64,000 nucleotides of DNA from Calditrichia bacterium (GCA_028284905.1 JANQQU010000003.1:1-64000); one strand, 5' to 3'; counted from the stretch's first letter, positions 13,091 through 59,107 are shown. Program-made: numbers and translations. The notes: generated by a model not told the origin, from the letters alone.

Positions 13091-13140
13091 TTTCAAACGC
13101 GGAATTTTTCCGCATTTCCCCGGAGTTTCCGCATTTCTCT
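13091..13140. promoter_or_regulatory. Perfect palindrome GCGGAA-TTT-TTCCGC followed by direct repeat TTTCCGCATTTC x2 (candidate operator)
   Basis: Seen at 13091-13105 and about 13097-13137, upstream of the outer-membrane protein gene and divergent from the LuxR-type regulator. Confidence 0.3.
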
Positions 13141-13211: not shown

Positions 13212-13228
13212 GTTGGCACCATCCTTGT
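13212..13228 (+). promoter_or_regulatory. Possible sigma-54 promoter variant (TGGCAC-N5-TTGT)
   Basis: TTGGCACCATCCTTGTC lies ~50 bp upstream of the ATG at 13280. The -12 is TTGT rather than TTGC, the same variant seen upstream of hsp20. Confidence 0.3.
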
Positions 13229-13279: not shown

Positions 13280-13930
13280 ATGAAAAATTTACGTCTTTTA
13301 TCAAGTGTTATCGTCTTGCTCCTGCTGGCAAGCAGTAGCAGTTGGGCGAATAACTGCCGATCCAAGAGCGGCATTGGCTTCCGGGGAAATTACTGGAATA
13401 TGATTGATGGCCAGCAGCGAATTTATGTCTATAATGATGGCGAAATCAGCAGCGTTAATGTTGGCGGCTTTGGTGGTTCGCTGTTCTTTTTTACCCGGGT
13501 GCAGGAACAACTCTCTATGGAATTTACCCTTGGCGCACTCGCGGCAGTTGTAGAACACCGGGAATATTATCATTGGGAAGATGTGGAAGTGAATGCCGTT
13601 TTTCCGCTATTATTTGGCTTCCGCTACGATCTGATGTCGGAAAAATCCCGCAGTGCCATGCAGCCTTACCTGATGTTTGGTGCCGGGGCTTACATTCTCA
13701 ATGATATTTCCGTGCAGGAATATGATTACCATGAAGAAGAGGTATCCGTCAGCTCAGTCAGTCGCCCGGGTGTTTATGTCGGTGGCGGCGCCAACCTGAT
13801 GCTTAGCAACACTTTCGGATTTTCCTATGATATTAAATACCATTGGGTTGACTTCGATGATTCCCAATACCAAAACGGATTTGAATTCGGCCTGGGGCTG
13901 GTGTTCCAATGGGGCCGCTTCCGGAAATAA
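13280..13930 (+). CDS. Outer-membrane beta-barrel protein (OmpW/OmpA-like 8-strand barrel family)
   Basis: Signal peptide MKNLRLLSSVIVLLLLASSSSWA, alternating hydrophobic beta-strand pattern, C-terminal aromatic (FQWGRFRK). Paralogous to the N-terminus of the next gene. Confidence 0.6.
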   Translation: MKNLRLLSSVIVLLLLASSSSWANNCRSKSGIGFRGNYWNMIDGQQRIYVYNDGEISSVNVGGFGGSLFFFTRVQEQLSMEFTLGALAAVVEHREYYHWEDVEVNAVFPLLFGFRYDLMSEKSRSAMQPYLMFGAGAYILNDISVQEYDYHEEEVSVSSVSRPGVYVGGGANLMLSNTFGFSYDIKYHWVDFDDSQYQNGFEFGLGLVFQWGRFRK

Positions 13931-27872: not shown

Positions 27873-29396
27873 TTACTTACTATCAGCGCTATCAATCGCT
27901 TTATCAGGGTTTTCATCTTGATCAGATTGGGTGTGTCCATTTTGCGGCGGATAAGGTAATTCCTGCTTCTGGAACTGACTGAGGATGTTCACACCAGTGG
28001 CGTTTTCAATTTGCTCCGAAAGGGAGATCAGCGCGCTGGGGAGCTGATTGATAAATCGGGAAACCCCGTTGCCGTTGCCATTTCCGGAATCGATGACGCT
28101 CACCTTGTCGATAGTTACCTTGCCAACCGTATCGGTCAACTGCTGCATAATGTCCGGCAACATGTTGAGCATAAAGACTTTCTCGCCATCGCCATTAGCA
28201 TTCTGATAAACCGAGATCATCTCTGCCAATACTTCCAGGTTTGCTTTACCTTTTTCCAGGATCGGTGCGGCTTCACCCTGGGCAGCAAGTTCTTTCGCTT
28301 GCTTATCGGCGCGGGCCGGCTCGATTATGTCAGCCATCAAGCGCTTCTTCTGTAAGAGAATCCGCTCTTCTTCCATTTCCTGCTCGTATTTCGCCTTGGC
28401 TTTTTCGCCGGCAACTTCTGCTTCTCTTTCCTTAATAATCGCTTCCCGTTCCAGCTCTGCTTTCTTAATACGCAAGTTATTCTCTTCCTGCTCAATACTC
28501 TGCTGAGCAACCGCATGAGAGACTTCAACTTCCTGGCGGGCTTTAATTTGTGCAGTTTTGATTTCCTGCTCGGCCTGTGCTTTCGCGATCTCCGCCATTT
28601 GCTGGGCATGTGCTTCGGAAACTTCTACGCCTTGATGCGCATTAATTTGCGCGGTCTTAATTTCCTGCTCCGCCTTTGCTTTCGCGATTTCCGCCTGCTG
28701 ACGGGAAAGTGCTTCTGCTTCTTCCGCCTCTGCGGTTCGTAATGCTTCCGCTTTCCGCGCTTCGGCAATAACTTCCGCAGTTTTCCGGCGGCCGATCGAA
28801 TCCAGATATCCGGCATCGTCGGAAACATTTTGGATTTTCAGAGTATCTAACTGCAGACCGAGCTGGTCCAGATCGTTGTCCGCTTCGCCAATCAGGCTTT
28901 GAGCAAATTTCAAGCGATCTTCATTAACTTCTTCCGGTGTTAATGTTGCCAGAACACCTCTCAGGTTTCCTTCCAATGTATCCTTGGCAATCTTGTGAAT
29001 ATCGTTAAACGGCTTTCCTAAGAAACGCTCAACAGCATTACCGAAAGAAGGTTCATTGGAATTAATTTTAACATTGGCGATTGCCTCCACACTCAGTGGA
29101 ATGCCACCTTTGGAATATGCATTCTTCACTGATAATTCGATCGGAATTGTTTCCAGGGACATCCGGGCGGCTCTCTCCACAACCGGCCAACGGATTGATC
29201 TGCCTCCACTAATTAAACGATATCCGACCACTGAGCCATCCGGCATTTTCCGTTTTTTACCGGAAATAACGATGACTTCATTGGGATGACAAACCATCAA
29301 CAGTTTGTTAATCATCATTACTACGACAATGGCGATAATCCCCAGAATAAATATTCCGCCCGCAAAAAAATTTTCAACGCCCATAATACCCTCCAA
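27873..29396 (-). CDS. Flotillin / SPFH (band 7) family protein, YqiK-like
   Basis: 507 aa. N-terminal TM, SPFH domain, long Ala/Glu-rich coiled region with an internal 33-aa tandem duplication. Confidence 0.9.
   Translation of the reverse strand: MEGIMGVENFFAGGIFILGIIAIVVVMMINKLLMVCHPNEVIVISGKKRKMPDGSVVGYRLISGGRSIRWPVVERAARMSLETIPIELSVKNAYSKGGIPLSVEAIANVKINSNEPSFGNAVERFLGKPFNDIHKIAKDTLEGNLRGVLATLTPEEVNEDRLKFAQSLIGEADNDLDQLGLQLDTLKIQNVSDDAGYLDSIGRRKTAEVIAEARKAEALRTAEAEEAEALSRQQAEIAKAKAEQEIKTAQINAHQGVEVSEAHAQQMAEIAKAQAEQEIKTAQIKARQEVEVSHAVAQQSIEQEENNLRIKKAELEREAIIKEREAEVAGEKAKAKYEQEMEEERILLQKKRLMADIIEPARADKQAKELAAQGEAAPILEKGKANLEVLAEMISVYQNANGDGEKVFMLNMLPDIMQQLTDTVGKVTIDKVSVIDSGNGNGNGVSRFINQLPSALISLSEQIENATGVNILSQFQKQELPYPPQNGHTQSDQDENPDKAIDSADSK
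28522..28720. repeat. ~99-bp tandem duplication (2 units, ~80% identity) inside the flotillin coiled-coil region
   Basis: Units ...CTTTAATTTGTGCAGTTTTGATTTCCTGCTCGGCCTGTGCTTTCGCGATCTCCGCC... and ...CATTAATTTGCGCGGTCTTAATTTCCTGCTCCGCCTTTGCTTTCGCGATTTCCGCC... Confidence 0.6.
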
Positions 29397-29482
29397 TTAT
29401 GTTTGGTTACTATTTTATATTATTCAATGCATCTGTATCGCTTTTCCAGCGAACATTCACTGCTGTGGGCATCCTGCACCGA

Positions 29483-30130
29483 TTAGACGAATTCCTTTTC
29501 CACCACATATGCTGTATTGTCTTTCACGCGTAACACAATCACCGTTTCTCCCTCCTGAAAATTATCCCGGTCTGCTTCATCAGCGGTAATTGCCAACAGT
29601 TGAAACTTGCGTCCATTGGCATTGAGGGTAATTTTTCCCTTGTTTTGCCGCGATAAATTGATGGTAACATTTGCCGGCATACCGGTTAATGAATTTAGGT
29701 TGAGAGAGCTGTCCACTTCGTTGCGAACGAGGTGATTGAGTGTTTTGTGCATTAGAAAACTGGCAATACCTCCCATTACGATAGCACTTGGGAGGGTAAT
29801 AAAGGCAGGAATGTTAAGTAGATTAAAAATGGTGCCAGTCATTCCGAAAAAAGCGACAAAGAAGATTGCATTGCGAAAGCTGAGAAACTTCGCGCCTTCC
29901 ACCAGGCCTTCGCTATCGGCAGCATCCCCCGCGGCGTCACTGTCTACGTCGACGTCCGCATCTGCATCAATGTCCATATCGCTCTGAAAATCTACATCGC
30001 CGTCGACATCGACATCCATTTCAACATCCGCATCCACATCAACATCCGCGTCTGTATCTCCACCAAAGAATAAAGAGATCGCAATAAATATTCCCCCTAC
30101 TATGAAACAGGCGAGATAAATTTTAAACAT
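29483..30130 (-). CDS. NfeD-like / YqiJ-like membrane protein (flotillin partner) with poly-acidic (D-V/A)n linker
   Basis: 215 aa. N-terminal TM, acidic repeat DADVDVDADVEMDVDVDGDVDF...DIDADADVDVDSD, 2 TM, C-terminal OB-fold-like beta domain. Lies immediately downstream of flotillin. Confidence 0.6.
   Translation of the reverse strand: MFKIYLACFIVGGIFIAISLFFGGDTDADVDVDADVEMDVDVDGDVDFQSDMDIDADADVDVDSDAAGDAADSEGLVEGAKFLSFRNAIFFVAFFGMTGTIFNLLNIPAFITLPSAIVMGGIASFLMHKTLNHLVRNEVDSSLNLNSLTGMPANVTINLSRQNKGKITLNANGRKFQLLAITADEADRDNFQEGETVIVLRVKDNTAYVVEKEFV
29935..30065. repeat. Hexanucleotide-periodic GACATC/GACGTC-type repeat encoding the (Asp-Val/Ala)n tract
   Basis: Seen directly as ...GTCGACATCGACATCCATTTCAACATCCGCATCCACATCAACATCCGCGTC... 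Confidence 0.5.
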
Positions 30131-30273
30131 GGCGCGCTCCTCAGTTTGTCATCGGTTCTGTCGATTATTTTTTTAAAAGGTAGAGCCGGGACAGGCGGTC
30201 AACCTGCCCGTGCTCTGGCATACCGGATGGGCACAACCGGTTGCTATCTATGTTAAAGGCATTGGCAATGGGA

Positions 30274-30996
30274 TTAGGAATCTTTCTTCTTGCCGGCTAA
30301 TTTCTTTTTCAACTGTGCTAATGCATCTTCTACGGATTTATCCTTCATTGCCTTATCGAGATCGATTTCTTTCTCTTTATCGGCACTTTCCAGCTTTAGC
30401 AATTCTTCCGATGCTTCCGCTTCTGCTTCCATTTGCAGGATCTTACCTTCGTAGGATTCCAGGGCTTTAATGGAGTCCAGATCACTAATGGAACTGGAAA
30501 TACTTCCCATTGCTTCCCGGGATTTCTTCAGAGCATTCTGGGTGCGCATTTGCGCGTCTGCGGCCAGCTTGCGCCGAATCAATTCTTCTTTCTTCCGCCG
30601 GGCGGTCTGAACCTGATCTTCCAGTTTATCCAGATTTTCCTTCATCTTTTCCGCGAGTGCTGTGGCAGTTTCTATTTCAGTTTCCAGGGCGCTTACCCGG
30701 TTGTCCAGTTCCAGCTTTTTCGTAATAATCTGACGGGCAAATTCCTCGTCGCCGCTCTCCAGGGCTGCTGCTGCCTTTTTCTCCAGCACCTCCGCCTGTC
30801 CACGGGTCATTTCGATTTTCTTCTCCAATTGCTTTTGCTGACCAATCGCTTTCACGGTTTCCCGGCGGAGTTCGATAATGCTTTCTTCCATATCGCGGAT
30901 AAGCTGTTTTACCATTACCTCCGGATCTTCAGCGGCATCCAGCATATGATTCACATTTGCTGAAATCAATTTGGAGATACGTTGTAAGATGTTCAT
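30274..30996 (-). CDS. pspA: PspA/IM30/Vipp1-family membrane-stress protein (copy 2)
   Basis: 240 aa. MNILQRISKLISANVNHMLDAAEDPEVMVKQLIRDMEESI is the canonical PspA N-terminus. Confidence 0.9.
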   Translation of the reverse strand: MNILQRISKLISANVNHMLDAAEDPEVMVKQLIRDMEESIIELRRETVKAIGQQKQLEKKIEMTRGQAEVLEKKAAAALESGDEEFARQIITKKLELDNRVSALETEIETATALAEKMKENLDKLEDQVQTARRKKEELIRRKLAADAQMRTQNALKKSREAMGSISSSISDLDSIKALESYEGKILQMEAEAEASEELLKLESADKEKEIDLDKAMKDKSVEDALAQLKKKLAGKKKDS

Positions 30997-31053
30997 GATA
31001 GAACCTCCATTAAGGATTTGTATTTACTTCGGACAGTCTGTGCTTGTCCCCCG

Positions 31054-31443
31054 TTAAGCCTGCATGATCCGCCGGATGTCTAGCCCTTCCTTATCGAGAG
31101 TGATTAACAAACCGGTCGATGCTTTGCAGTGCTTCAGGTAATTTCTTAATTTCACTTCATCGGTCAGGTTAATTTTTCTGTCCAGGCGGATAAACACCGC
31201 CAGGTCGTCAAAACACAAGAAGTCTTCTGTTACTTCTTTTCCTGATACTGCCGCAACTGCTCTGAGATTTTGAAATTTAACATTCTTCAGTTCGAATTCT
31301 TTCATCAATGCTTTTGCATAACTGCTGTTATTGTTATGCTGGGCGGTGCGATAAAAAGCGCGTTGCGCAGCGCGGATGATTAAAAAGGTTTTGGCCTCCC
31401 AGATGTCGGCCGCTTTGTTTTGATGTTTGCTTGTGTGTACCAT
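31054..31443 (-). CDS. GxxExxY-family (PD-(D/E)XK-like fold) small protein
   Basis: 129 aa. The pattern ...YAKALMKEFELKNVKFQNL...DFLCFDDLAVFIRLD...LRNYLKHCKASTGLLITL matches the GxxExxY architecture. First gene downstream of the sigma-54 promoter. Confidence 0.45.
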   Translation of the reverse strand: MVHTSKHQNKAADIWEAKTFLIIRAAQRAFYRTAQHNNNSSYAKALMKEFELKNVKFQNLRAVAAVSGKEVTEDFLCFDDLAVFIRLDRKINLTDEVKLRNYLKHCKASTGLLITLDKEGLDIRRIMQA

Positions 31444-31535
31444 TGCCCTCTACCCTCGTCAGCACATTAAATCTTCTGACTTTGCCTTCTTTAAGGCTTT
31501 TTCTTTTTCTCTTTTAACTTGCTACTTGTGCTATT

Positions 31536-31552
31536 CGCAACAGGTGTGCCAA
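31536..31552 (-). promoter_or_regulatory. Sigma-54 (RpoN) promoter, -24/-12: TTGGCACACCTGTTGCG
   Basis: Exact TGGCAC-N5-TTGC on the minus strand. Lies ~90 bp upstream of the GxxExxY gene and 0.54 kb upstream of pspA copy 2, and immediately downstream of the pspF-like gene. Confidence 0.7.
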
Positions 31553-31587
31553 ACAAGGGAATGCGGGTTTCAGGGGTTTTTCGGGGG

Positions 31588-31634
31588 AAATTTGGTGGTT
31601 TTTTTCGCCAACTTGGTTTTTTTCACCACCAATT
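31588..31634. promoter_or_regulatory. Inverted repeat AATTTGGTGG-N27(T-rich)-CCACCAATT upstream of the sigma-54 promoter (candidate enhancer/UAS)
   Basis: Arms at 31588-31598 and 31626-31634, lying 40-100 bp upstream of the -24 element. Confidence 0.35.
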
Positions 31635-31644
31635 ATCTGGTGTT

Positions 31645-32619
31645 TTACACCATTAATTCTTCAAGCTTGTATTTCTTATAGAAGTGCCGAAACTGATCGT
31701 AAGTCATTCCGAGCATCTCCGCGGCACTGCGCTGATTGCCTTCGGCTTCTTTCAATGCATTTAGGAGGAGGGTCTTTTCGTAGGCGCGAACTTTCTCGTA
31801 AAAATTTCCGCGAATGGGTTCTACCGAGGTAATTTCCATTGGCAGCTCGCTGGCGTGGATCGTGCCGTCTTCATCATAAAAATAAAGCCGCTCTATCATG
31901 TTTTTTAGTTGGCGGATATTGCCGGGCCAATAATAATTTTTCAGTTCGTTAATGGCCGAGGGCGTAAAGTTTTTTTCATCCAGATTGGGAATTTCCCGAT
32001 GGAGTTTGTCGATGAAATGGGCGATCAGGGCGGGAATGTCCTCCCGACGCTTTCGTAGGGGTGGGAGGGTTAGCTCTGCAAAAGAGAGGCGATCGTAGAG
32101 GTCTTCCAGGAATTCGCCATTTTTCATCATCTTTTCCAGGTCGGCATTTGTCGCGGCGATAATCCGTACATCGACGGTAATCGATTTGGTGCCCCCTAAT
32201 CTTTCGAACTTCTGATATTCAATTACCCGCAGCAACTTCTCCTGCACCGTGCGATTCATGTTCGCCACTTCATCGAGGAACAATGTACCGCCGTCGGCAA
32301 TCTCCAGTTTGCCGGCCTGGGCGTCAACCGCGCCGGTATAAGCCCCTTTCTCCCGGCCAAACATTTCAGCGATGATCAAATCTTCCTGAAAAGCGGCACA
32401 GTTTACAACAATATATGGTGCCTCGCCACGGCCGCTCTCGTTGTGAATGAATTGGGCAAGCAGCTCCTTGCCGGTGCCTCGCTCTCCACGGATCAACATG
32501 GGGCGGGCAATTTTTGCATAAGTAGATGCCTGCTGTAAGACTTTTACATATGCTTCGCTGTTCCCGATGCCAAAAGGAATTTTATTTTCGATTATTTGTT
32601 TTTTCATTTCGCCGGCCAT
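31645..32619 (-). CDS. pspF: PspF-like sigma-54-dependent transcriptional activator (AAA+ domain + C-terminal HTH, no receiver domain)
   Basis: 324 aa. Walker A GERGTGKE, GAFTGA-like loop (GAYTGA), Walker B/R-finger region, C-terminal Fis-type HTH. The receiver-less architecture is typical of PspF. Confidence 0.85.
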   Translation of the reverse strand: MAGEMKKQIIENKIPFGIGNSEAYVKVLQQASTYAKIARPMLIRGERGTGKELLAQFIHNESGRGEAPYIVVNCAAFQEDLIIAEMFGREKGAYTGAVDAQAGKLEIADGGTLFLDEVANMNRTVQEKLLRVIEYQKFERLGGTKSITVDVRIIAATNADLEKMMKNGEFLEDLYDRLSFAELTLPPLRKRREDIPALIAHFIDKLHREIPNLDEKNFTPSAINELKNYYWPGNIRQLKNMIERLYFYDEDGTIHASELPMEITSVEPIRGNFYEKVRAYEKTLLLNALKEAEGNQRSAAEMLGMTYDQFRHFYKKYKLEELMV

Positions 32620-38974: not shown

Positions 38975-39061
38975 TATGCGTCCTTTCCGATCCTATATAC
39001 CAATTGCGCCAACATAATAAAACTGGTAGTAACAATGCCTCACAAAAGAATAACATCCTGT

Positions 39062-39104
39062 AAAAAAAAGGGGGGCTGCTCGGTCTTTCGACACCAGCAG
39101 CCCC
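39062..39104 (-). terminator. Strong intrinsic terminator on minus strand (GGGGGCTGCT...AGCAGCCCC followed by T8 on the minus strand)
   Basis: 9-10 bp GC-rich stem. On the minus strand it is followed by CCCCTTTTTTTT. Located ~310 nt downstream of the stop of the 39417-39908 gene. Confidence 0.65.
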
Positions 39105-39416
39105 TGGAGGGGAGGGAAGGAGTATAAATAAACTTAATTGGGGTTTTGCTACTGTTCTCCTCAACAACTTTACATAGAACAAACCTCATGCCATATTCTG
39201 GTCACGTTTAAAAAACGCAACACCAAATTCCATAAACTCAATTTTTACAAAATCTTAAACAAAGACCCTTATTAGTAAGCCCTGGCTAATAATGCCCGTT
39301 TGTGCGTATTAATACACAGCGAATCAGTAAAACTGGGGGATATGCCTCAGATGCAAAAAAAACGGCAGACATTAAAAAATGCCCGCCGTGAAATATGCTT
39401 CGTAGCTGTCGATTAA

Positions 39417-39908
39417 TTACTTGATTTCTTTTCCATACTTTTTATGAAAATGGTCTCTTGCGCCAATCACCCAGCCGTCGCGGCGAATGCGCCCGGGAAA
39501 CTCACCGATTTTACCGGACAGCTCATCGATATCCTTATCGTCCATTGTTGCGATCTGGCTAAAACGAAAAATGCCCATATCGTTCAGGCGTTTTTCAAGC
39601 ACTTTTCCGATCCCCCAGATCTTCTTGAGATCATCCCGCTCATCTTCTTCGACATCCGGAACAACAACAGCTGCGACCGGTGTCGCTTTCAATGATTTCC
39701 GGCAGTCTTCCAGATCGGATGTTAGACTATCCACTTTTATCCGATAAGCCTGAATTTCTTCTTCCAGGCTATAGAGATTCGCCTTGGAAATATTCCGGTC
39801 TTTTTCATCGCGTTCATAGCGCGCTTTGCTCCAGAAATAGCCGATAATAAATCCCAGGATAAACGCTGCCAAGAGGCACAAAATGATTTGAGTAATCAGG
39901 TAGGTCAT
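39417..39908 (-). CDS. Membrane-anchored protein with C-terminal helix-hairpin-helix-like domain (DUF4332-like)
   Basis: 163 aa. N-terminal TM, central coiled coil, C-terminus ...LKKIWGIGKVLEKRLNDMGIFRFSQIA...GRIRRDGWV resembling HhH modules. Confidence 0.4.
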   Translation of the reverse strand: MTYLITQIILCLLAAFILGFIIGYFWSKARYERDEKDRNISKANLYSLEEEIQAYRIKVDSLTSDLEDCRKSLKATPVAAVVVPDVEEDERDDLKKIWGIGKVLEKRLNDMGIFRFSQIATMDDKDIDELSGKIGEFPGRIRRDGWVIGARDHFHKKYGKEIK

Positions 39909-40802: not shown

Positions 40803-42179
40803 TTAAATCAAGTGATACTTCTCCAGGCGATAGCGAAAGGTATCCCGGCTAAGGTGCAGCAGCTTTGCTGCCCGGGACTGATTGCCCTCGGCAATCGCCA
40901 TTGCATCCTGCAACAGTTTTTTCTCAATTTCATCGAATGAAATGCCTTCCGGTGGTAATTTAAACCGTTCCAGCGGCGAGGCGGATGGTTCGCTGCTACT
41001 GAGCATACCGATCTGCAGATCTTCCGCATCAATCGCATCTCCTTCGACAAAGATCATCGCTCGTTCAATAGCATTGCGCAATTCCCGGACATTCCCAGGC
41101 CATTCGTGATTTCGCAATTTATTCCGCGCTTCCGAGGTAAATCCCTTTACTGATTTTTTGTAGCTGATATTCAGCCCATTAACGAAATTACTAGCCAGCG
41201 TGAGAATATCATCCCCCATCACTCTCAAGGAGGGAAGATCAATATTAACAACGCTTAAGCGATAAAATAAATCTTCCCGAAATGCTTGTTCGTGGACCAG
41301 TTTCTTTAAATGACGATTGGTAGCGGTAATCAATCGAATATCTACGGATATTTCTTTATTACTGCCCAGTCGGCGAAAACGGCGAGTTTCCAAAAAGGAG
41401 AGCAGCTTTGCCTGCAGCTTCGGCGGCATTTCCCCAATTTCATCGAGGAATAATGTGCCATTATGTGCTGTTTCCAACAGTCCGGGCTTCGTGGTCATCG
41501 CATTGGTGAATGCACCCTTTTCGTAGCCAAACAGTTCGGATTCCAGCAATGTATCCGGAATCGCCGCACAGTTGATTTCGACAAATGGCGCCTGGCTTCC
41601 CTGGGATGAGTAATGGATAATGCGGGCTATCATGCTTTTTCCGGTGCCGCTTTCTCCGGTAAGCAGGATTGTTGCTGTCGGGATCTTCGCAATCTTTTCG
41701 ATCGTACGCTTCACTTTGCTAATCGGCTCGGAGTCTCCCCAGATATGAGCAAATCCTTCGCTGGATTGTGCTTTTAAAATGCCTTCAAGTAGTTGTATTT
41801 CATTGCGTTGTTGGTTGACTTGCTGTTGCAGTGTCGCTTTATCGGTAACATCCGTTATCAGGCAAAAGAGCGGCTTATCCGCATCATCAGTGGGATGAAA
41901 CGAAATATTAAAATAGTTAATCTCGCCATCTTCAGATTCGCGGTTGATATTTTCCAGGGAGAATGTCGGTTGGCTGCCATCGATAATGGCAGAAAGGATT
42001 GCTTCCAGGCCAAAAGTTTCCGGGAATAGCTGGGTAATGGACTGCCGCTGAACATCCCCGGTGGAAACTGTAAAGCGAGCAAACCGTTTGTTCGCAGTCA
42101 CTACCCGGCTCTCCGGGGAGAGATAGGCGAAACCGTAAAGGTTCTGACTCAGTAAATTTTCAAAAAACAGCGTGTCCAT
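40803..42179 (-). CDS. Sigma-54-dependent transcriptional activator with N-terminal PAS domain (no receiver domain)
   Basis: 458 aa. PAS, AAA+ (GESGTGKS, GAFTNA variant of GAFTGA, ESELFGYEKGAFT), C-terminal HTH. Confidence 0.9.
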   Translation of the reverse strand: MDTLFFENLLSQNLYGFAYLSPESRVVTANKRFARFTVSTGDVQRQSITQLFPETFGLEAILSAIIDGSQPTFSLENINRESEDGEINYFNISFHPTDDADKPLFCLITDVTDKATLQQQVNQQRNEIQLLEGILKAQSSEGFAHIWGDSEPISKVKRTIEKIAKIPTATILLTGESGTGKSMIARIIHYSSQGSQAPFVEINCAAIPDTLLESELFGYEKGAFTNAMTTKPGLLETAHNGTLFLDEIGEMPPKLQAKLLSFLETRRFRRLGSNKEISVDIRLITATNRHLKKLVHEQAFREDLFYRLSVVNIDLPSLRVMGDDILTLASNFVNGLNISYKKSVKGFTSEARNKLRNHEWPGNVRELRNAIERAMIFVEGDAIDAEDLQIGMLSSSEPSASPLERFKLPPEGISFDEIEKKLLQDAMAIAEGNQSRAAKLLHLSRDTFRYRLEKYHLI

Positions 42180-42182
42180 AAT

Positions 42183-42710
42183 TTAGCTGGATGCAATAAG
42201 TAGACCAAGTTTTTCAAATGCGGCTTCAACATTATTATTTTCTTTTGCACTGGTCAGCAAGACCGGCGCTTTTAATGTCTCACCCAGTTCTTCAAGTTGC
42301 TGGATATTCTCACTCTCGGCAGCAATTAAATCAAATTTATTTCCGGCGAGCACAAATGGCGTACCGGGTGCAGTTTGCTGATAGGCTTCGACAATATTAT
42401 TCGCGACCGAAATACTATCCGGGCGGGTAAGATCGGAGACAATTAGCGCACCGTGGGCGCCAATCATATAATTCTGAATTTGTGGCGTAATCACTTCCGC
42501 GCCTTCAATATCCCAGAGCAAAAAGTTAAACTGCACTATTTTGTGTTGATCGGTTTCTATTGGAGAGAGGAGTTTTTGACAAACTTTGATACCGATGGTA
42601 GATTTGTATTCATCATCAAATTTGTTATATACAAATCGTTCGACCAGGCTCGTTTTACCGACCCCGAACATTCCCAGTATACATATCTTCTTCTGATTCA
42701 TGCTGTTCAT
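42183..42710 (-). CDS. Ras-superfamily small GTPase (MglA/Rab-like)
   Basis: 175 aa. P-loop GMFGVGKTS, switch I T (TIGIKV), WDIEG (DxxG), GNKFDL (NKxD), SAK. Start is 4 nt after the upstream activator's stop... tight spacing with both neighbours. Confidence 0.8.
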   Translation of the reverse strand: MNSMNQKKICILGMFGVGKTSLVERFVYNKFDDEYKSTIGIKVCQKLLSPIETDQHKIVQFNFLLWDIEGAEVITPQIQNYMIGAHGALIVSDLTRPDSISVANNIVEAYQQTAPGTPFVLAGNKFDLIAAESENIQQLEELGETLKAPVLLTSAKENNNVEAAFEKLGLLIASS

Positions 42711-42711
42711 T

Positions 42712-43596
42712 TTAGCTGTTCTGTGTTACTTCCAGATAGGACTTTAAGGGTTGTTCGATTTCTTTCAGGTGAGAGTTGTCGCCATCATGGTCTCTTAATT
42801 TGCGATAGAAACGACCATGAATGTTTTCATGAAGCTCCCGGACACTTTTCGAGAAATCTTCCGGAGGAATGCCATTATAAACAACTGCAAGATAGCTGTA
42901 AATGGCACTATCGATGCGAATGGTTGATTTGCTGTGCTCAATTTCCCGAAGCTCGCCGGGGTCATCGTTCGAAAAAGATGTTTCCACAAAGGATTTAATT
43001 GCCGTCAGCATTCCCCCGATAATATGCGCATCATCATTTTCAGGAGATAATCCTTCCCGGTTGGCGTAAGAGACTAATAAACCGGAGTTCTTTGCAATCA
43101 GAAAAACCCGCTGTATCTCAAATGGTAGTGCATCTCTCATTATCAATTCTGCCTGGCTAACGCCTTTGAAGCGAGCAATAAGCGATCGAAACCAACGGGA
43201 GAAGTTGAAAGTTTTGTTCAGCTGTTGATTGATATTCGCCGCGAATTTTTTCATCGCTTCAGTGACGGCTTTGCTGACCATTCGCCCGACAATCGGGTAC
43301 ATCGCATCAACCATATCTTCTTTGGCATCGCGAATTTGGACTTTGATCGCCTCGCTCATCACCGGTGCCAGGGACTCCGCCATTTCCGCTTTGGAATTAC
43401 GAATCTTATTTTCCAGTAACTCCGCGATTACCGGTTGCAGGGTTTCGATGAGATGATCTTTCTCGTTCAGCTGTTCATGAAGCCGCTGAATTTCCGCTTC
43501 AAGTTGCTGGATACGATTCTGATCTTCGGTAAGCAGCAGATGCTTTAACTGTTTGAAGGGGTCATCAAAAGAATTTGGTATGTCCCGATTATTCAT
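42712..43596 (-). CDS. Roadblock/LC7 (MglB-like) domain protein with N-terminal coiled-coil extension
   Basis: 294 aa. C-terminal ~110 aa alpha/beta segment (FLIAKNSGLLVSYANREGL...IIGGMLTAIKSF...RIDSAIYSYLAVVYNG) consistent with the Roadblock fold. Ends 2 nt before the GTPase start. Confidence 0.55.
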   Translation of the reverse strand: MNNRDIPNSFDDPFKQLKHLLLTEDQNRIQQLEAEIQRLHEQLNEKDHLIETLQPVIAELLENKIRNSKAEMAESLAPVMSEAIKVQIRDAKEDMVDAMYPIVGRMVSKAVTEAMKKFAANINQQLNKTFNFSRWFRSLIARFKGVSQAELIMRDALPFEIQRVFLIAKNSGLLVSYANREGLSPENDDAHIIGGMLTAIKSFVETSFSNDDPGELREIEHSKSTIRIDSAIYSYLAVVYNGIPPEDFSKSVRELHENIHGRFYRKLRDHDGDNSHLKEIEQPLKSYLEVTQNS

Positions 43597-44011
43597 CGTT
43601 ATTCAGTGCGTCACTTTGTCCGTTAGTTAGCTGAACTTTTTTGCCTGTCTGCAACCGCTCTCCCATTTCTATCAGATACTCTGCCAGTGTAGACCGCTGT
43701 ACGCTGTTTTGGTCACATGATTTTATCATGCCACTCAAACGAGTGTCGAGATCTTGCAAACGATCCTGAAAATTTTTGTCCAGATCGGATATCTGCGAGC
43801 GCAGTTCCTGATGTTTTTCTTCATTTGTCGTTTTCAAGGTGTCGATCGATTTTTGAAGCGCGTCCAGGGATTGCTCGACTCTTTTTTGCAACGCAGCGAC
43901 TTCGCCGGTTACAGAATTAAACTTTTCATTTAATGCATCTACCTGTTGCCCAAAAAGCAACTGGCGAATTTGATCCATGGTGTTTTCAGAAGGGGCATTA
44001 CTCTTGCTCAT
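43589..44011 (-). CDS. Coiled-coil protein of unknown function
   Basis: 140 aa, all-helical heptad character. Overlaps the downstream gene by 8 nt (translational coupling). Confidence 0.5.
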   Translation of the reverse strand: MSKSNAPSENTMDQIRQLLFGQQVDALNEKFNSVTGEVAALQKRVEQSLDALQKSIDTLKTTNEEKHQELRSQISDLDKNFQDRLQDLDTRLSGMIKSCDQNSVQRSTLAEYLIEMGERLQTGKKVQLTNGQSDALNNDE

Positions 44012-44178
44012 GACAGCTAAATCTCCCTTTTATTTTATCCAGCAAGTAACATATCCCTGATTGATTTACTATAGCATATACCTATTCGACCGGAAGGCGA
44101 ACAGTGTAGTGTGGTGGTATTATAACGTTTTAATATCTGCATAATTTTTTATGAATGCAAGAATTAGAACGTTTTCCG

Positions 44179-45063
44179 CTATCGGGTAATATTCAGGTTA
44201 CCAGAACGATTTACCGGCAAATCAATATTTTTTAACAGTGGCAAAGAAGTATCAAAACCAAATGTGCCATCAAAATTGTAATTCACACTGTTATTCCCGG
44301 AAAGCAGGTTAAATACGGTTTGACCGACTTCCAGAAAGTTCAGAGAAATCGGCACACGCAGGTTTCCTTTGCCATTTCCGGCAATCTGCATCGCCTGACT
44401 GCTTAACCCTTCTGCCCAATTTTGGCCATTCACATTAAAATTGTAGTTCATATTTTTTAAGGAGAATGCAAATCCATTCGGGTTATCCACTTCGATGTTC
44501 AGGGCTAAATCCGCGCCGGTCAGGTTTAATTTATCCAATTTCAGTGAAGCAACTTTCACTTTCGGCACCTTAATCATTGGCACCTCGCCACTATGACTGA
44601 CAGGAATTCGGGTTTTGCCAAGCAGGGGAAGGTCTACGGTTACCCCGACGTCAATCTTGTAACCAGAGTTATCCTGATTTTTCAAAGCGGCGAAAGTGTT
44701 ATACAGATCTTTAAAATTTAGGGTGAGCGGAATTTCAAAGTTACTGGTTTGGGCGGCGCCGATTTCCTGCGGCGAGTCCTGCTGCCCGGTGAGGAATGAT
44801 GACTGATTGATCTGGAAATCGTAATCGAATCCCATCAGATTAGCGGACACCTGATTCGGATTTTCTACGGCCAACTCAACTGCCAAATCGATATCACTCA
44901 GGCTCATACCGGTAAAACGGACATTTTTTACACTCACATTCGGCTTCTGCACATTCATCAGGTTCTGAACGGTGGCACAGCCAGCAAACCATAAACAAAG
45001 CGTCATTAGCATCCAGAAAGAGAGTCGCTTTTGTAGTAACTTAGTCATATGAAATTCCTTCAA
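44179..45063 (-). CDS. LEA type-2 (water-stress/hypersensitive-response domain) lipoprotein, two LEA_2 repeats
   Basis: Lipobox WFAGCAT. Repeated VKNVRFTGMSLSDIDLAVELAVENPN / LKLDKLNLTGADLALNIEVDNPN motifs. Confidence 0.7.
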   Translation of the reverse strand: MKEFHMTKLLQKRLSFWMLMTLCLWFAGCATVQNLMNVQKPNVSVKNVRFTGMSLSDIDLAVELAVENPNQVSANLMGFDYDFQINQSSFLTGQQDSPQEIGAAQTSNFEIPLTLNFKDLYNTFAALKNQDNSGYKIDVGVTVDLPLLGKTRIPVSHSGEVPMIKVPKVKVASLKLDKLNLTGADLALNIEVDNPNGFAFSLKNMNYNFNVNGQNWAEGLSSQAMQIAGNGKGNLRVPISLNFLEVGQTVFNLLSGNNSVNYNFDGTFGFDTSLPLLKNIDLPVNRSGNLNITR

Positions 45064-45078
45064 TTTTATCTTTCAATA

Positions 45079-46383
45079 TTATAATACGCTTTTTAGTATC
45101 TCTACAAAGTGATATATATCGGAATAACTATTATAGAGCGGCACCGGCGCTACACGGATGACATCCGGCTCCCGCCAGTCGCAAACCACACCACGTTCGC
45201 TGATGGCATCATACACCCGTTTCCCTTCGGAAGCAACTACTAAGGAAAGCTGGCATCCACGCGATTCGACTTCGTGCGGAGTAATGTAGCTAATTTTTTC
45301 CGGGCCAATTTCGTCAACAAGAAAGGCCAGGTAATTGGTTAACTGAATACTTTTCTCCCGCAGAGCCTCCATACCCGCTTCGTCAAAAATATCCATGGAG
45401 GCACGTAAAGCAGCCATCGGTAGTATGGGTGGATTGCTTAACTGCCAGCCTTCCGCGCCGGGGATTGCCTGAAAGTCCGGCCCCATTTTAAAACGGGTAT
45501 GTTTATCATGGCCCCACCAGCCGGCAAATCTTGGTAAATCCTGACGATCCGCGTGTCGCTCGTGGACGAAGCAGCCAGCCAGGCTTCCCGGCCCGCTATT
45601 CAAATATTTGTAGGAACACCAAGCAGCAAAATCTGCATCCCAGTCATGTAACTGCAATGGCACATTACCGGCCGCATGGGCAAGATCATACCCCACCACA
45701 CAACCCTGCTTATGCGCCAACGTGCTAATTTGCCCCAAATCGAAGAATTGCCCGGTGTAATAATTCACCCCGCCCAAAAGCACCAGGGCGATTTGCGATC
45801 CTTCTCTTTCGAGCATATCGGCGATATCTGCCATTCGGTGGGTTACTTCCCCTTCCCGCAAAGGCAACTCCAGAAAAGCATCGGCGGGATCGTATCCGTG
45901 AAAAGAGATTTGAGACTTTACCGCATATTGATCGGATGGGAAGGCATTCGCTTCGATCAGTATCTTATAGCGTTGTGGGGTCGGGCGATAAAAGGAAACC
46001 ATCAGCAGGTGCAGATTAACCGTCAGACTGTTCATCACCACCACTTCCTGCGCCTGCGCCCCAACCAGGCGGGCAGTCGCGCGGGTTAAATTCTCGTGGT
46101 ATGGCATCCAGGGATGTTTCGCGCGAAAATGTCCTTCAACCCCATGCGCTTCCCAATCGGCTAATTCCTGCTCGACGTAGGCCCGCACGGATTTCGGTTG
46201 CAGGCCGAGAGAATTACCGCAGAGGTAAATCACTGGGTTGCCATCATGATGTTTGGGGTGATTAAAAAGATCCCGATAGCGAGCAAGTGGGTCCGATGTG
46301 TCTAAATGCTGGGCGAATTCCCGATCCGTTTTAAATGTCATCAATATATCCCGGTTGATATAAAAGGCATATTCAGCAAACAA
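45079..46383 (-). CDS. kynU: Kynureninase
   Basis: 434 aa. PLP-fold type I. N-terminus FAQHLDTSDPLARYRDLF..IYLCGNSLGLQPK is typical of kynureninase. Confidence 0.9.
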   Translation of the reverse strand: MFAEYAFYINRDILMTFKTDREFAQHLDTSDPLARYRDLFNHPKHHDGNPVIYLCGNSLGLQPKSVRAYVEQELADWEAHGVEGHFRAKHPWMPYHENLTRATARLVGAQAQEVVVMNSLTVNLHLLMVSFYRPTPQRYKILIEANAFPSDQYAVKSQISFHGYDPADAFLELPLREGEVTHRMADIADMLEREGSQIALVLLGGVNYYTGQFFDLGQISTLAHKQGCVVGYDLAHAAGNVPLQLHDWDADFAAWCSYKYLNSGPGSLAGCFVHERHADRQDLPRFAGWWGHDKHTRFKMGPDFQAIPGAEGWQLSNPPILPMAALRASMDIFDEAGMEALREKSIQLTNYLAFLVDEIGPEKISYITPHEVESRGCQLSLVVASEGKRVYDAISERGVVCDWREPDVIRVAPVPLYNSYSDIYHFVEILKSVL

Positions 46384-55006: not shown

Positions 55007-55021
55007 AGGACTGTACATAAC

Positions 55022-55049
55022 AAAGGGCGGATAAATTTATCCGCCCTTT
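55022..55049. terminator. Bidirectional terminator palindrome AAAGGGCGGATAAA|TTTATCCGCCCTTT between ppk and hsp20
   Basis: Perfect 14-bp palindrome between convergent genes. Confidence 0.6.
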
Positions 55050-55073
55050 GCAATCACTCGCTGAAAAACCGTT

Positions 55074-56049: not shown

Positions 56050-56120
56050 TGTATTTCCTCCTAAAAGGTTTTTAAAGTTTGGTTTTCAAAATTCTGCTCA
56101 TGCAGTTGCTTTTACTATTT

Positions 56121-56135
56121 ACAACCAGTGTGCCA
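56121..56135 (-). promoter_or_regulatory. Sigma-54-type promoter variant upstream of hsp20: TTGGCACACTGGTTGT (AAATAG follows)
   Basis: TGGCAC-N5-TTGT. The ~35-bp region is near-identical in layout to the pspA-operon sigma-54 promoter (TTGGCACACCTGTTGCGAATAGCACAAG vs TTGGCACACTGGTTGTAAATAGTAAAAG). Confidence 0.5.
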
Positions 56136-56277
56136 AAAACAAAACCGAAACCATAAACAACTGTTTAAAAACGACTTAAAAGAAAATGTTTTTTTAGATA
56201 CAGTTTAGGAGGTCAGAAAAAATTTCCGGCATGCGGACAGCGCTTGTCAGGGAAAATGTAACAGATTCACACCCGAC

Positions 56278-56310
56278 TGACAGTTTGGCAAAACTTGCGA
56301 CAAACTGTCA
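56278..56310. promoter_or_regulatory. Perfect inverted repeat TGACAGTTTG-N13-CAAACTGTCA (candidate enhancer-binding-protein UAS), with additional TGTCA/TGACA half-sites nearby
   Basis: 10-bp arms at 56278-56287 and 56301-56310, ~150 bp upstream of the sigma-54-type promoter. Extra half-sites at 56245, 56329. Confidence 0.45.
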
Positions 56311-56500
56311 AAACGCTGATTTCGCTACTGACAAATGTGGATATCACGGGTGGCGAGAATGCCTTCAATATATAAACATTGCCCAATGATTTTTAAAAGC
56401 CGCTCACAGGATACTCAAACGGAACTGGGTATTGAATTTCCCTCTCGCTGGCTTTACCTTCCAGAGATACCTAATGCCATTTCAAGATCGGATATTCACA

Positions 56501-58081
56501 ATGAATTTATATGCTGTTCCCATGCTAATTTCCGGCATTCTCTGCATGCTGCTGGCTATTGTTACCTGGCTATTTCGCCGGCGCGAACGCATTAACCGGA
56601 TTTTCTCTTTCTTTACCCTGGCATTGGCTTTGGATGCATTTGCTTTCTTTGCCTGGTTTCAATTTGGCACTCTGGAAAGCATTCATACCTGGATGCGCCT
56701 CACTTTTTCCGCAGGCTTCATTGTTCCCGCCGGACTAATCCTCTTCTTTCTTGCCTTTACCGGCTATGACAAAAATTTGTCAGCCAAAATCATGGGCATC
56801 CGGGTAAAACATTTTCTCATTGTTACCCTGACGTTCATTTTCATCACCGCACTGCTTAGCCAGTTTACCGACCTGGTGAACAAGATCCCTGAGAATCCCC
56901 AACATATCTGGGATACACCTGCAGGGCCTTTGGGAATTTTAATGCTGCCGATTTTTGCCCTAATCTTTCTCTATCTGTTTACGATGGCTTATAAAAGTTA
57001 TCGAAAGGCTGAAAGTCTTGCGCAACAGCGGTTTATCTTAATACTGATCATTGGCACATCCCTGTGGATACTTTTCGGTTATGTTGGCGCGCTGGCATTC
57101 CCGGTAGGTAGCAAAACCTGGTCTGCCATTAGTTATCTTGGCACGGGAATTATGGCGGTGTTTTACTTTGTCGCTATCGTCAACTTTCAATCAGACAAAG
57201 TGCACGCGCTTAACATCGGCCTCGAAGAAAAGGTCGCAGAGCGGACGCGCGAACTTAGCGAGAAAAACATTGAACTGGAGGATGCATTCAACCAATTAAA
57301 GGAGATGCAAAAACAAATAATCGTTCAGGAAAAGATGGCTTCGCTGGGACAGCTCGTAGCCGGGCTAACCCATGAGTTCAACACACCGATCGGTGCCATG
57401 CGTAGCATGCAAAGCACAAAGTCGAAAGCGTTGAAACGGCTGGAGAAAACATTGGCCGATGGGCATAGTGCAAACAGCGCAGACAGCCGGGAAATCAACA
57501 AAATGATGAAGGTGATATCTGACGCGGACCAACTGATCGATGAAGGCACCGGGCGCCTGCATGGCATTATTGAAAATTTGAAAAATTTTGTAAGGCTGGA
57601 TGAATCCGAGACGGTGAAAGCCGACATTCATGATGGCATCGAGAGTGTGCTGTCTTTATTGGAAAGTGATATTCTGAAAGGTATTCAGGTTACCCGCAAT
57701 TATGGGGTAGTGCCGGAAATTCTTTCTCAACCCCGCAAACTAAACCAGGTATACCTAAATATTATTAAAAATGCTGCCCAGGCAACAACCGGTAAAAATG
57801 GGCGTATCACCGTCACTACTGTTTTACAGGAAAATAGTATTCATATTTCCATCCGGGATAACGGTAAAGGCATTGAGCAGAAAGATCTCACAGCGATTTT
57901 TGAGCCGGGCTTTACCACCAAGAACGCGATCGTCCGGGCCCGGCTTGGATTGGCGATTAGCCTGCAGATCGTTCAGGAGCATCAGGGTAGTATACAGGTC
58001 GACAGCGAGCCGGGAAAAGGCTCAGTTTTCACCATCATTCTCCCGGTTGAACCTCTGCAGGATGCCCACGCAGAAAATTGA
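56501..58081 (+). CDS. Sensor histidine kinase with N-terminal polytopic membrane sensor domain
   Basis: About 7 TM helices. HisKA (LTHEFNTPIGAMRS), HATPase_c (N, G1 DNGKGI, G2 GLGL boxes). Confidence 0.85.
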   Translation: MNLYAVPMLISGILCMLLAIVTWLFRRRERINRIFSFFTLALALDAFAFFAWFQFGTLESIHTWMRLTFSAGFIVPAGLILFFLAFTGYDKNLSAKIMGIRVKHFLIVTLTFIFITALLSQFTDLVNKIPENPQHIWDTPAGPLGILMLPIFALIFLYLFTMAYKSYRKAESLAQQRFILILIIGTSLWILFGYVGALAFPVGSKTWSAISYLGTGIMAVFYFVAIVNFQSDKVHALNIGLEEKVAERTRELSEKNIELEDAFNQLKEMQKQIIVQEKMASLGQLVAGLTHEFNTPIGAMRSMQSTKSKALKRLEKTLADGHSANSADSREINKMMKVISDADQLIDEGTGRLHGIIENLKNFVRLDESETVKADIHDGIESVLSLLESDILKGIQVTRNYGVVPEILSQPRKLNQVYLNIIKNAAQATTGKNGRITVTTVLQENSIHISIRDNGKGIEQKDLTAIFEPGFTTKNAIVRARLGLAISLQIVQEHQGSIQVDSEPGKGSVFTIILPVEPLQDAHAEN

Positions 58082-58547: not shown

Positions 58548-58577
58548 GAAAAACTCCTTTATTAAGGATATTAATTA

Positions 58578-58813
58578 GGTCGTGTTGACAATCAGGTTAA
58601 ACAACAGGTTCCAGAAACTTTACAAAGCGCTGTTTATTTTGAATATAGAAATTTTCAAAAAATCCCACATTCATTCTGAGCCCCTCGTCAAGCTCAGGAT
58701 GAATAGAGGTCGTGATGTCTGTTTTTATTGTATTATCGATTCACTTTAGATATAAAATGCGATGAAAGATAGATAATGACAATTAGTAAACGTTCTTGAT
58801 TGTCATCACGACC
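58578..58813. mobile_element. MITE-like element with 17-bp terminal inverted repeats (GGTCGTGTTGACAATCA / TGATTGTCATCACGACC, 16/17) and an internal hairpin ATTCATTCTGAGC-N10-GCTCAGGATGAAT
   Basis: Read directly. The internal hairpin (58669-58704) is related to the TIR of the 12891-13053 element. An extra internal copy GGTCGTGATG sits at 58707-58716. Confidence 0.5.
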
Positions 58814-59107
58814 GAATCTAATACCCGCGAAATTTTGATAATTTTATCTCCGCTCCCGCTGGCGAGCATTTCCTCATTCCCTTAGGGCAATTCTGTAATG
58901 ATTATACGCCCAATGATAAACGGCATTCGGGGATTCAGGTTGCCGAAAAGTAGCAATTTGCGGAAATTATTTCTGCCATTCAAGCCGACGAAGACCTAGC
59001 GCCCAAAGGAATATAAATGTGTTGATTTTCCCATCGCGCATCTGCTTATTTATACCCCTTAACTGAGGGAAGACTAAACTAATTTCGAACAGCTGTGGAG
59101 GAGTGCC

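Follow-up and report, generated by a model that had tools for sequence, protein, structure and literature searches.

Heat-shock control is poorly charted outside the Proteobacteria and Firmicutes, and a tandem pair of hsp20 genes in a Calditrichia bacterium raises the question of which promoter and which class of regulator govern small heat-shock proteins (sHsps) in such lineages. We analysed a stretch of 64,000 nt (64 kb; GCA_028284905.1, JANQQU010000003.1:1-64000; here called the window) with a G+C content of about 46%, and collected the features of the hsp20 locus together with a comparator promoter in Table 1. The two encoded proteins share 42% identity, and the 82-nt spacer between their genes holds a hairpin and no T-run in this orientation; hsp20-2 is probably co-transcribed with hsp20-1, and the tandem pair is kept in loci L001-L014. 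The contigs of the close Hsp20 relatives (84-89% identity) are syntenic here, with ppk followed by hsp20-2, hsp20-1 and then a divergent 7TM histidine kinase. On the kinase side of the spacer, the 90 nt upstream of the kinase ATG (56411-56500) are 79% identical to L004 and near-invariant in L001 and L003, a conservation above that of most of the spacer; an ORF opening with TTG at 56432 would lengthen the kinase by 23 residues, and the segment may be coding sequence or a leader element.

Table 1. Positions of the hsp20 operon, its predicted control elements and the comparator promoter in the window
Feature	Coordinates	Strand	Remarks
Perfect hairpin between convergent ppk and hsp20-2	55021..55050		likely operon terminator
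hsp20-2, 146 aa	55074..55514	-	Pfam HSP20 PF00011, E 1.2e-26
hsp20-1, 150 aa	55597..56049	-	Pfam HSP20 PF00011, E 5.4e-23
Predicted 5' UTR	56050..56108	-	Shine-Dalgarno AGGAGG at 56062..56057; 87% identical to L004
Predicted transcription start	56109	-	12 nt past the -12 base, from standard sigma-54 promoter geometry
Sigma-54-type -24/-12 element TGGCACactggTTGT	56121..56135	-	GG at -24/-25; GT replacing GC at -13/-12
Proximal dyad CGGAAATTTTTTCTG, CGGMAA-N3-TTKCCG type	56214..56228	-	at -93
Near-unit TGTCCGCATGCCG	56227..56239	-	at -104; 1 mismatch to TGNCA-N3-TGNCR
Distal enhancer unit 2 (candidate) TGCCAAACTGTCA	56278..56290	-	starts 155 nt upstream of TGGCAC; holds the other repeat arm
Distal enhancer unit 1 (candidate) TGACAGTTTGTCG	56298..56310	-	starts 175 nt upstream of T of TGGCAC; holds one repeat arm
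pspA-operon sigma-54 promoter TGGCACacctgTTGC (comparator)	31537..31551	-	downstream of pspF-like activator gene 31645-32619

Sigma-54 promoters form a class defined by GG and GC doublets 10 nt apart within TGGCAC-N5-TTGC. A previous sequence-only reading of the window had placed such a promoter upstream of the tandem hsp20 genes, with TTGT for TTGC at the -12. The promoter sequence that it gave is present, but the coordinates assigned to it (56108-56135) were off by one, the minus-strand segment 56136..56109 being TTGGCACACTGGTTGTAAATAGTAAAAG. Within it, the core TGGCACACTGGTTGT (56135..56121, minus strand) lies 72 nt upstream of the hsp20-1 ATG; TGGCAC, the 5-nt spacer and TTG are perfect, and the last C is T as described. 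Matches to TGGCAC-N5-TTGY are rare in the window, with three sites found against 0.27 expected in 64 kb (three were reached in 1 of 100 shuffles), namely the hsp20 promoter, that of the pspA operon (31551..31537) and a site at 13214-13228.

We then aligned the intergenic region with its counterparts in other genomes, a comparison that the sequence-only reading had itself suggested, and found the promoter core kept while the flanking DNA diverges. All three syntenic relatives (L001, L003 and L004) retain the -24/-12 element, including the T at -12, and identity between the window and the most distant of them, L004, is 90% in the element and 87% in the predicted leader, against only 44% in the spacer just upstream of the promoter. 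In L005 and L011 (Hsp20 identity 49-54%), TGGCAC-N5-TTGT stands at the same place before tandem hsp20 genes while the other DNA is unalignable; L014 has TTGA at the -12, and the best match among species-representative genomes, a Calditrichia MAG with 57% Hsp20 identity, carries TGGCACgaggtTTGA. Thus, TGGCAC-N5-TTG(T/A) is kept in relatives down to 49% Hsp20 identity. Among 80 hsp20 loci of species-representative genomes, a search for TGGCA[CT]-N5-T[TC]G[CT] in the sense orientation within 500 nt upstream returned 13 matches in 11 loci, compared with 0.61 expected from the background rate of the same loci (p = 1.5e-13; about 20-fold enrichment) and with 2 antisense matches. A metagenome scan added 11 more promoter matches, several of which are near-duplicates of each other or of genome loci. 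The gene for sigma-54 (rpoN) lies outside the 64-kb window; two Sigma54_activat proteins within it imply that the organism uses this factor. Retained in relatives and enriched upstream of hsp20, the proposed promoter withstood these comparisons and is very likely real, and its dependence on sigma-54 is what the core would predict.

If the -24/-12 match were instead non-functional owing to its GT at -12, the genes would be served by an unrecognised sigma-70-family promoter together with post-transcriptional heat control. This possibility draws on the -12 C, which is reportedly nearly invariant, with the rest of the GC doublet, in characterised sigma-54 promoters, and on the fact that promoter rules are not established for Calditrichota. 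However, the hsp20 spacer offered nothing to take the place of the element: sigma-70-like sites were not above chance, and neither a sigma-32-like pair (CTTGAAA-N-CCCCATNT) nor a Bacteroidetes-type promoter was found there. An RNA thermometer (ROSE, fourU) in the 60-nt leader was considered and rejected, the fold being no better than that of shuffles (z = 0.13), and no Rfam family came near its gathering score in the leader. Across the whole window, CIRCE matches all had 5 or more mismatches in 18 and HAIR matches 3 or more in 14, and none of these weak matches lay near hsp20. Moreover, the non-C base (T or A) is itself conserved together with TGGCAC and the spacing, and we regard a non-functional match as improbable.

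The deviation at -12 deserves attention in its own right. Orthologous hsp20 promoters keep the T (or A), with TGGCAC and the spacing, over deep divergence, and among lineages that carry the exact enhancer unit described below, 12 have T or A at this position and 3 have C. The consensus bases at -12 are said to be linked to tight activator dependence. Because the GC is near-invariant elsewhere and tied to activator dependence, and yet the deviation is conserved, the non-C base is probably functional. What role it plays is a matter of speculation; plausibly, T or A at -12 loosens the lock of the sigma-54 closed complex at the site where melting nucleates, which would make these promoters faster or intrinsically temperature-sensitive. 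As a natural variant of the position that governs activator dependence, the non-C -12 is a useful test case for the sigma-54 mechanism.

Activator sites of the sigma-54 class usually lie about 80-200 nt upstream of the promoter, and the sequence-only reading had pointed to a perfect 10-bp inverted repeat in this range as an enhancer candidate. The repeat is there (TGACAGTTTG at 56278-56287 and CAAACTGTCA at 56301-56310, separated by 13 nt), as are the additional TGTCA/TGACA half-sites at 56245 and 56328, and nowhere else in the window do 120 bp hold four or more CTG[CTA]CA sites (five here, with a density expectation of 0.17). Perfect 10-bp inverted repeats with short spacers are nevertheless not rare in the window (about 15 distinct, mostly terminators, vs about 2 in shuffles), and the 13-bp pattern introduced below, which is degenerate with nine fixed bases, occurs in the whole window at chance level (5 vs 3.9 expected). 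The significance of the enhancer candidate therefore lies in its position and in its recurrence in other genomes. From comparison of the aligned loci, a better description of the inverted repeat is a pair of 13-bp dyads of the form TGNCA-N3-TGNCR in mirror orientation. The 10-bp repeat is down to 7/10 in L004, yet the counterparts of unit 1 (TGTCAATTTGGCG) and unit 2 (TGACAAAATGGCG) agree with the consensus there, the core bases being kept and all changes falling at degenerate positions.

An unbiased 6-mer screen led to the same dyad. In this screen, 16 non-redundant sigma-54-positive hsp20 promoters were anchored at TGGCAC and the region from -230 to -41 was compared with the rest of the same loci. 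CTGCCA/TGGCAG ranked first (17 vs 2.3 expected, p = 5e-10) and CTGTCA/TGACAG second (11 vs 1.15 expected, p = 4e-8), followed by TTGTCA, TTGACA, TGCCAA and CTGACA, and the top 6-mers assemble into TGNCA-N3-TGNCR with an A/T-rich centre. Within 23 sigma-54-positive hsp20 promoters this dyad gave 28 strand-hits against 0.25 expected (p = 2e-47), with strict units in only 11 of the 23; when one mismatch was allowed, the unit appeared in 8 of 9 further promoters (0.23 expected per region), and the window gained a third at -104. The TGACAG/CTGTCA element proposed as an enhancer candidate has thus held up under comparison.

The positions of the units are fixed as well. Counted from the T of TGGCAC, they lie at -175/-176 and -155/-156 in the window and its three syntenic relatives, at -134 and -104 in L021, L022, L025, L107 and L113, and at -132 in L131. 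A composite search for sigma-54-type cores that have a unit at a distance of 60-230 nt upstream, run on both strands over all fetched loci and the window (1.18 Mb), returned 23 matches, and all 23 are sense-upstream of hsp20-containing operons. Two of these operons extend beyond sHsps: in L015 (Kryptonia), three hsp20 genes, a small gene and lon follow a promoter that has TTGA at -12 and a unit at -97, and in L054, a MAG labelled Deltaproteobacteria, a TTGA promoter whose units lie at -143 and -124 stands before a receiver-domain gene, dnaK, hsp20 and dnaJ. The window fits the resulting module definition (TGGCAC-N5-TTG(T/A/C) with at least one unit 90-180 nt upstream, sense, before an hsp20 operon) with two exact units and one near-unit, and its candidate activator sites, the units at -175 and -155 and a block at -104/-93, are positionally fixed and enriched across loci. 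The arrangement is similar to that of NtrC at glnAp2, in which two dyad sites likewise stand whole helical turns apart, at about 100-180 nt from the -24/-12 on its upstream side, but it differs in the physiological signal and in the site sequence, the NtrC site being TGCACC-N5-GGTGCA.

The palindrome at 56278-56310 could also be read as an operator that serves the divergent gene of the 7TM histidine kinase (about 56501-58081) or some other regulator, with no part in hsp20 activation. The kinase gene does share the spacer in the window, L001, L003 and L004, and the 100 nt beside its start are highly conserved. Against this, the unit recurs at fixed distances from the hsp20 promoter despite different neighbours (in L005-type loci a porin, in L015 and L054 other genes), and it is always on the hsp20 side, so that such an operator has little probability in our judgement and the units are better read as candidate enhancers of the hsp20 operon.

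Between these units and the promoter lies a second conserved block (56211-56243; 85% identity to L004). Its TGTCCG element stands at -104 to -110 in 7 of 7 Calditrichia-type lineages, and a dyad CGGAAA-N3-TTTCYG follows at -93 to -96 in the window, L001, L003, L004, L005 and L011, and at -85 in L014. Perfect CGGMAA-N3-TTKCCG is nearly confined to these promoters, with 2 other copies in 1.18 Mb, and in L005 a second perfect dyad of this type, CGGCAAgaaTTGCCG, takes the place that the centre of the palindrome has in the window. As the clearest conserved dyad in L005 and L011 is CGGMAA-N3-TTKCCG and not TGNCA-N3-TGNCR, the exact recognition sequence is ambiguous, and the proximal block may be a site for the same protein as the distal units, for another activator or for an architectural protein. 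Elsewhere in the window, CGGAAATTATTTCTG (58961-58975) is identical to the proximal dyad at 14 of 15 positions. We rejected this copy as a regulatory site, since close relatives preserve it together with all of the DNA around it and there is no promoter in its vicinity. It sits in the conserved part of a region (58548-59107) that lacks the 354-aa gene found in L001 and L004 between the amylase and lumazine-binding-like genes (L001 2161-2407) and has about 330 nt of unrelated sequence in its place.

We next compared the hsp20 promoter with the pspA promoter, which the sequence-only reading had called near-identical, concluding that sHsps belong to the same sigma-54 regulon as PspA. In such a regulon, the PspF-like activator (31645-32619) would drive both operons. 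Both are stress genes inside one 64-kb window, and the two promoters are indeed identical at 22 of 28 positions, including 12 of 18 outside the core consensus (naive p about 2.5e-4). The additional likeness, however, has no meaning that we can support, because it is not conserved in relatives: the shared ACAC (after TGGCAC) and AATAG (after the -12) are conserved in distant relatives of neither promoter, and the pspF-pspA loci of three relatives have TGGCAT-N5-TTGC with no ACAC/AATAG extension and with unrelated upstream elements. The -12 differs consistently, being TTGC in pspA promoters of 4 of 4 lineages (the window and three relatives) and TTGT or TTGA in hsp20 promoters. The upstream elements differ too. 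An inverted TTGGTGGT pair (31592-31599 and 31625-31632) around CCAAGTTGG precedes pspA, with TGGCG-N5-CGCCA in its place in L174 and L175; neither element occurs in the hsp20 region 56050-56500, and no TGNCA cluster or unit occurs upstream of pspA. Since the relatives' pspA promoters lack the extension and the upstream elements are unrelated, we reject a shared PspA/hsp20 regulon, to which we attach the lowest probability of the alternatives weighed here. The two operons appear to share a sigma factor, but not an activator nor a regulon in the usual sense. The PspF-pspA pair of E. coli, homologous to that of the window (32619..30274), resembles the hsp20 module in having a stress-responsive sigma-54 promoter with an upstream enhancer, and differs from it in the enhancer, in the -12 and in that the activator gene is adjacent to pspA but unlinked to hsp20.

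The Psp cluster itself (27873-32619, minus strand) comprises the pspF-like gene, the promoter, a PD-(D/E)XK_3 gene, PspA, a 215-aa gene and a 507-aa SPFH/Band-7 protein. Relatives (L174-L176) differ in what separates promoter and pspA, having a 125-aa gene plus DUF6141, a 128-aa gene or no gene there. The PspF-like protein has 324 aa, no sensory domain and the contact motif GAYTGA in place of GAFTGA, and several of its close homologues are labelled Calditrichaeota by their sources.

Which protein acts at the hsp20 enhancer was then approached through gene linkage. No activator gene is linked to the hsp20 module among about 170 hsp20 loci; tblastn with both window activators against all loci found hits only in L014 (5 kb away, cut), L046, L120 and L140, none of which has the unit, and a literature search found no known activator with a TGNCA-type site. 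In a narrower form of the sigma-54 explanation, the role would fall to the PAS-domain activator of the window (40803-42179). This complete Sigma54_activat and HTH_8 protein is encoded 14 kb from hsp20, and its operon also carries stress-type genes (LEA_2, then OmpA/BON). However, no TGNCA cluster lies near that operon, the protein has a variant motif (GAFTNA) for sigma-54 contact, the loci just mentioned show no activator linked to hsp20, and the genome surely encodes more activators outside the window. We consider this assignment unlikely, though less so than the other alternatives; the protein is a candidate by proximity only. It belongs to an operon-like run at 40803-46383 (minus strand) with genes for a kynureninase-like protein, LEA_2, a coiled-coil protein, an uncharacterised 294-aa protein and a Ras-like small GTPase, after which comes the OmpA/BON gene.

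A phosphorelay input to the module is hinted at by the divergent 7TM histidine kinase of the window group and by the receiver-domain gene of L054, neither of which is conserved across the module. The latter (L054 359-739) encodes a stand-alone receiver-domain protein as the first gene of a predicted sigma-54-driven dnaK-hsp20-dnaJ operon, and is possibly a feedback element of the activator pathway.

Taken as a whole, and judged on comparative sequence evidence, it is probable that the tandem hsp20 operon is governed by a sigma-54 promoter with a dyad enhancer, which form a conserved heat-shock module apart from PspF-PspA. The operon would be transcribed by sigma-54 RNA polymerase from TGGCACactggTTGT (56135..56121), with a start near 56109 and presumably upon heat stress, and activation would come from an enhancer-binding ATPase at the TGNCA-N3-TGNCR dyads 155 and 175 nt upstream of the -24. 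The lineage-specific block TGTCCG...CGGAAA-N3-TTTCYG, about 93-104 nt upstream, could bind the same protein or a second one. Under this model, the promoter-plus-enhancer module would precede hsp20 operons in Calditrichota-like, Kryptonia/Bacteroidota and several other uncultivated lineages, and would be separate from the PspF-PspA circuit of the window, with its activator encoded elsewhere. A bolder extension, which we put forward tentatively and lean against at present, is that one enhancer-binding family runs the primary heat-shock regulon (hsp20, dnaK/dnaJ and lon) through TGNCA-N3-TGNCR in Calditrichota, Kryptonia and several other uncultivated lineages that gave no sigma-32-type signal, with the non-C -12 being functional.

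The sequence-only reading regarded sigma-54 control of sHsps as out of the ordinary, which overstated the case. The E. coli ibpB promoter is bound by sigma-54 and served as a ChIP positive control (Kuczynska-Wisnik et al. 2001, via PMC2831329). It resembles the present case in placing a small heat-shock gene behind a -24/-12 promoter, bound by the sigma-54 holoenzyme in E. coli and predicted here. The ibpB gene is also sigma-32-controlled through ibpA and has the promoter TGGTAA-N5-TTGC; the window, in contrast, has no sigma-32-like site that we could find in the hsp20 spacer, a perfect -24, GT at the -12 and a definable conserved enhancer. A 2025 survey (PMC12316311) reports that in Bacteroidota and Planctomycetota sigma-54 promoters are significantly enriched at the COGs for IbpA (COG0071), DnaK, DnaJ, GrpE and GroESL, and lists ATP-dependent (lon-type) proteases as enriched too. 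Both that survey and our analysis predict sigma-54 chaperone promoters outside the Proteobacteria, L015, L016 and L020 being Kryptonia/Bacteroidota examples here, but the passages of the survey that we consulted take up neither enhancer sites nor the -12 deviation for these genes, and a search of its text gave no mention of Calditrichota. In Myxococcus xanthus, the HsfB/HsfA phosphorelay activates the heat-shock gene lonD (Ueki and Inouye 2002, via PMC9109919). An NtrC-like activator acting on a heat-shock gene is the common element, and a kinase beside hsp20 and a receiver gene heading the L054 operon are the counterparts here, while the window has no receiver-type activator and the target genes differ.

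Because ibpB, the 2025 survey and HsfA-lonD precede it, the kind of system is already known. Our literature search found no description of a Calditrichota example, of a shared TGNCA-N3-TGNCR enhancer with fixed phasing or of a conserved non-C -12, and we regard the shared enhancer motif and the conserved -12 base as modestly new. If the model is true, these lineages use an ATP-dependent activator with sigma-54, and not a heat-shock sigma factor or repressor. The enhancer consensus with its fixed spacing offers a handle both for computing the regulon in metagenome-assembled genomes and for finding the activator by co-occurrence; for the window, our result corrects the idea of one circuit common to PspA and small Hsps.

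Two further sites were observed in the window. The third sigma-54-type core, TGGCACcatccTTGT (13214-13228, plus strand), has T at -12 and lies before an outer-membrane beta-barrel gene (13281-13930; PF13505). Upstream of it (13095-13140) are a perfect dyad GCGGAAtttTTCCGC and two TTTCCGCATTTC copies 19 nt apart, elements that resemble the hsp20 block CTGTCCGCATGCCGGAAA with a different spacing. We did not assign this site to the hsp20 regulon, because it is without TGNCA units and its CGGAA-N3-TTCCG dyad is differently spaced. The other site, TGGCATgaggtTTGT at 39193..39179 (minus strand), lies between an ORF at 39417-39908 and a DUF3179 gene, and about 70 nt past it is a strong G+C hairpin with a T-run (about 39125..39060, minus strand); this region could give rise to a small sigma-54-driven transcript or could merely be the terminator of the upstream gene.
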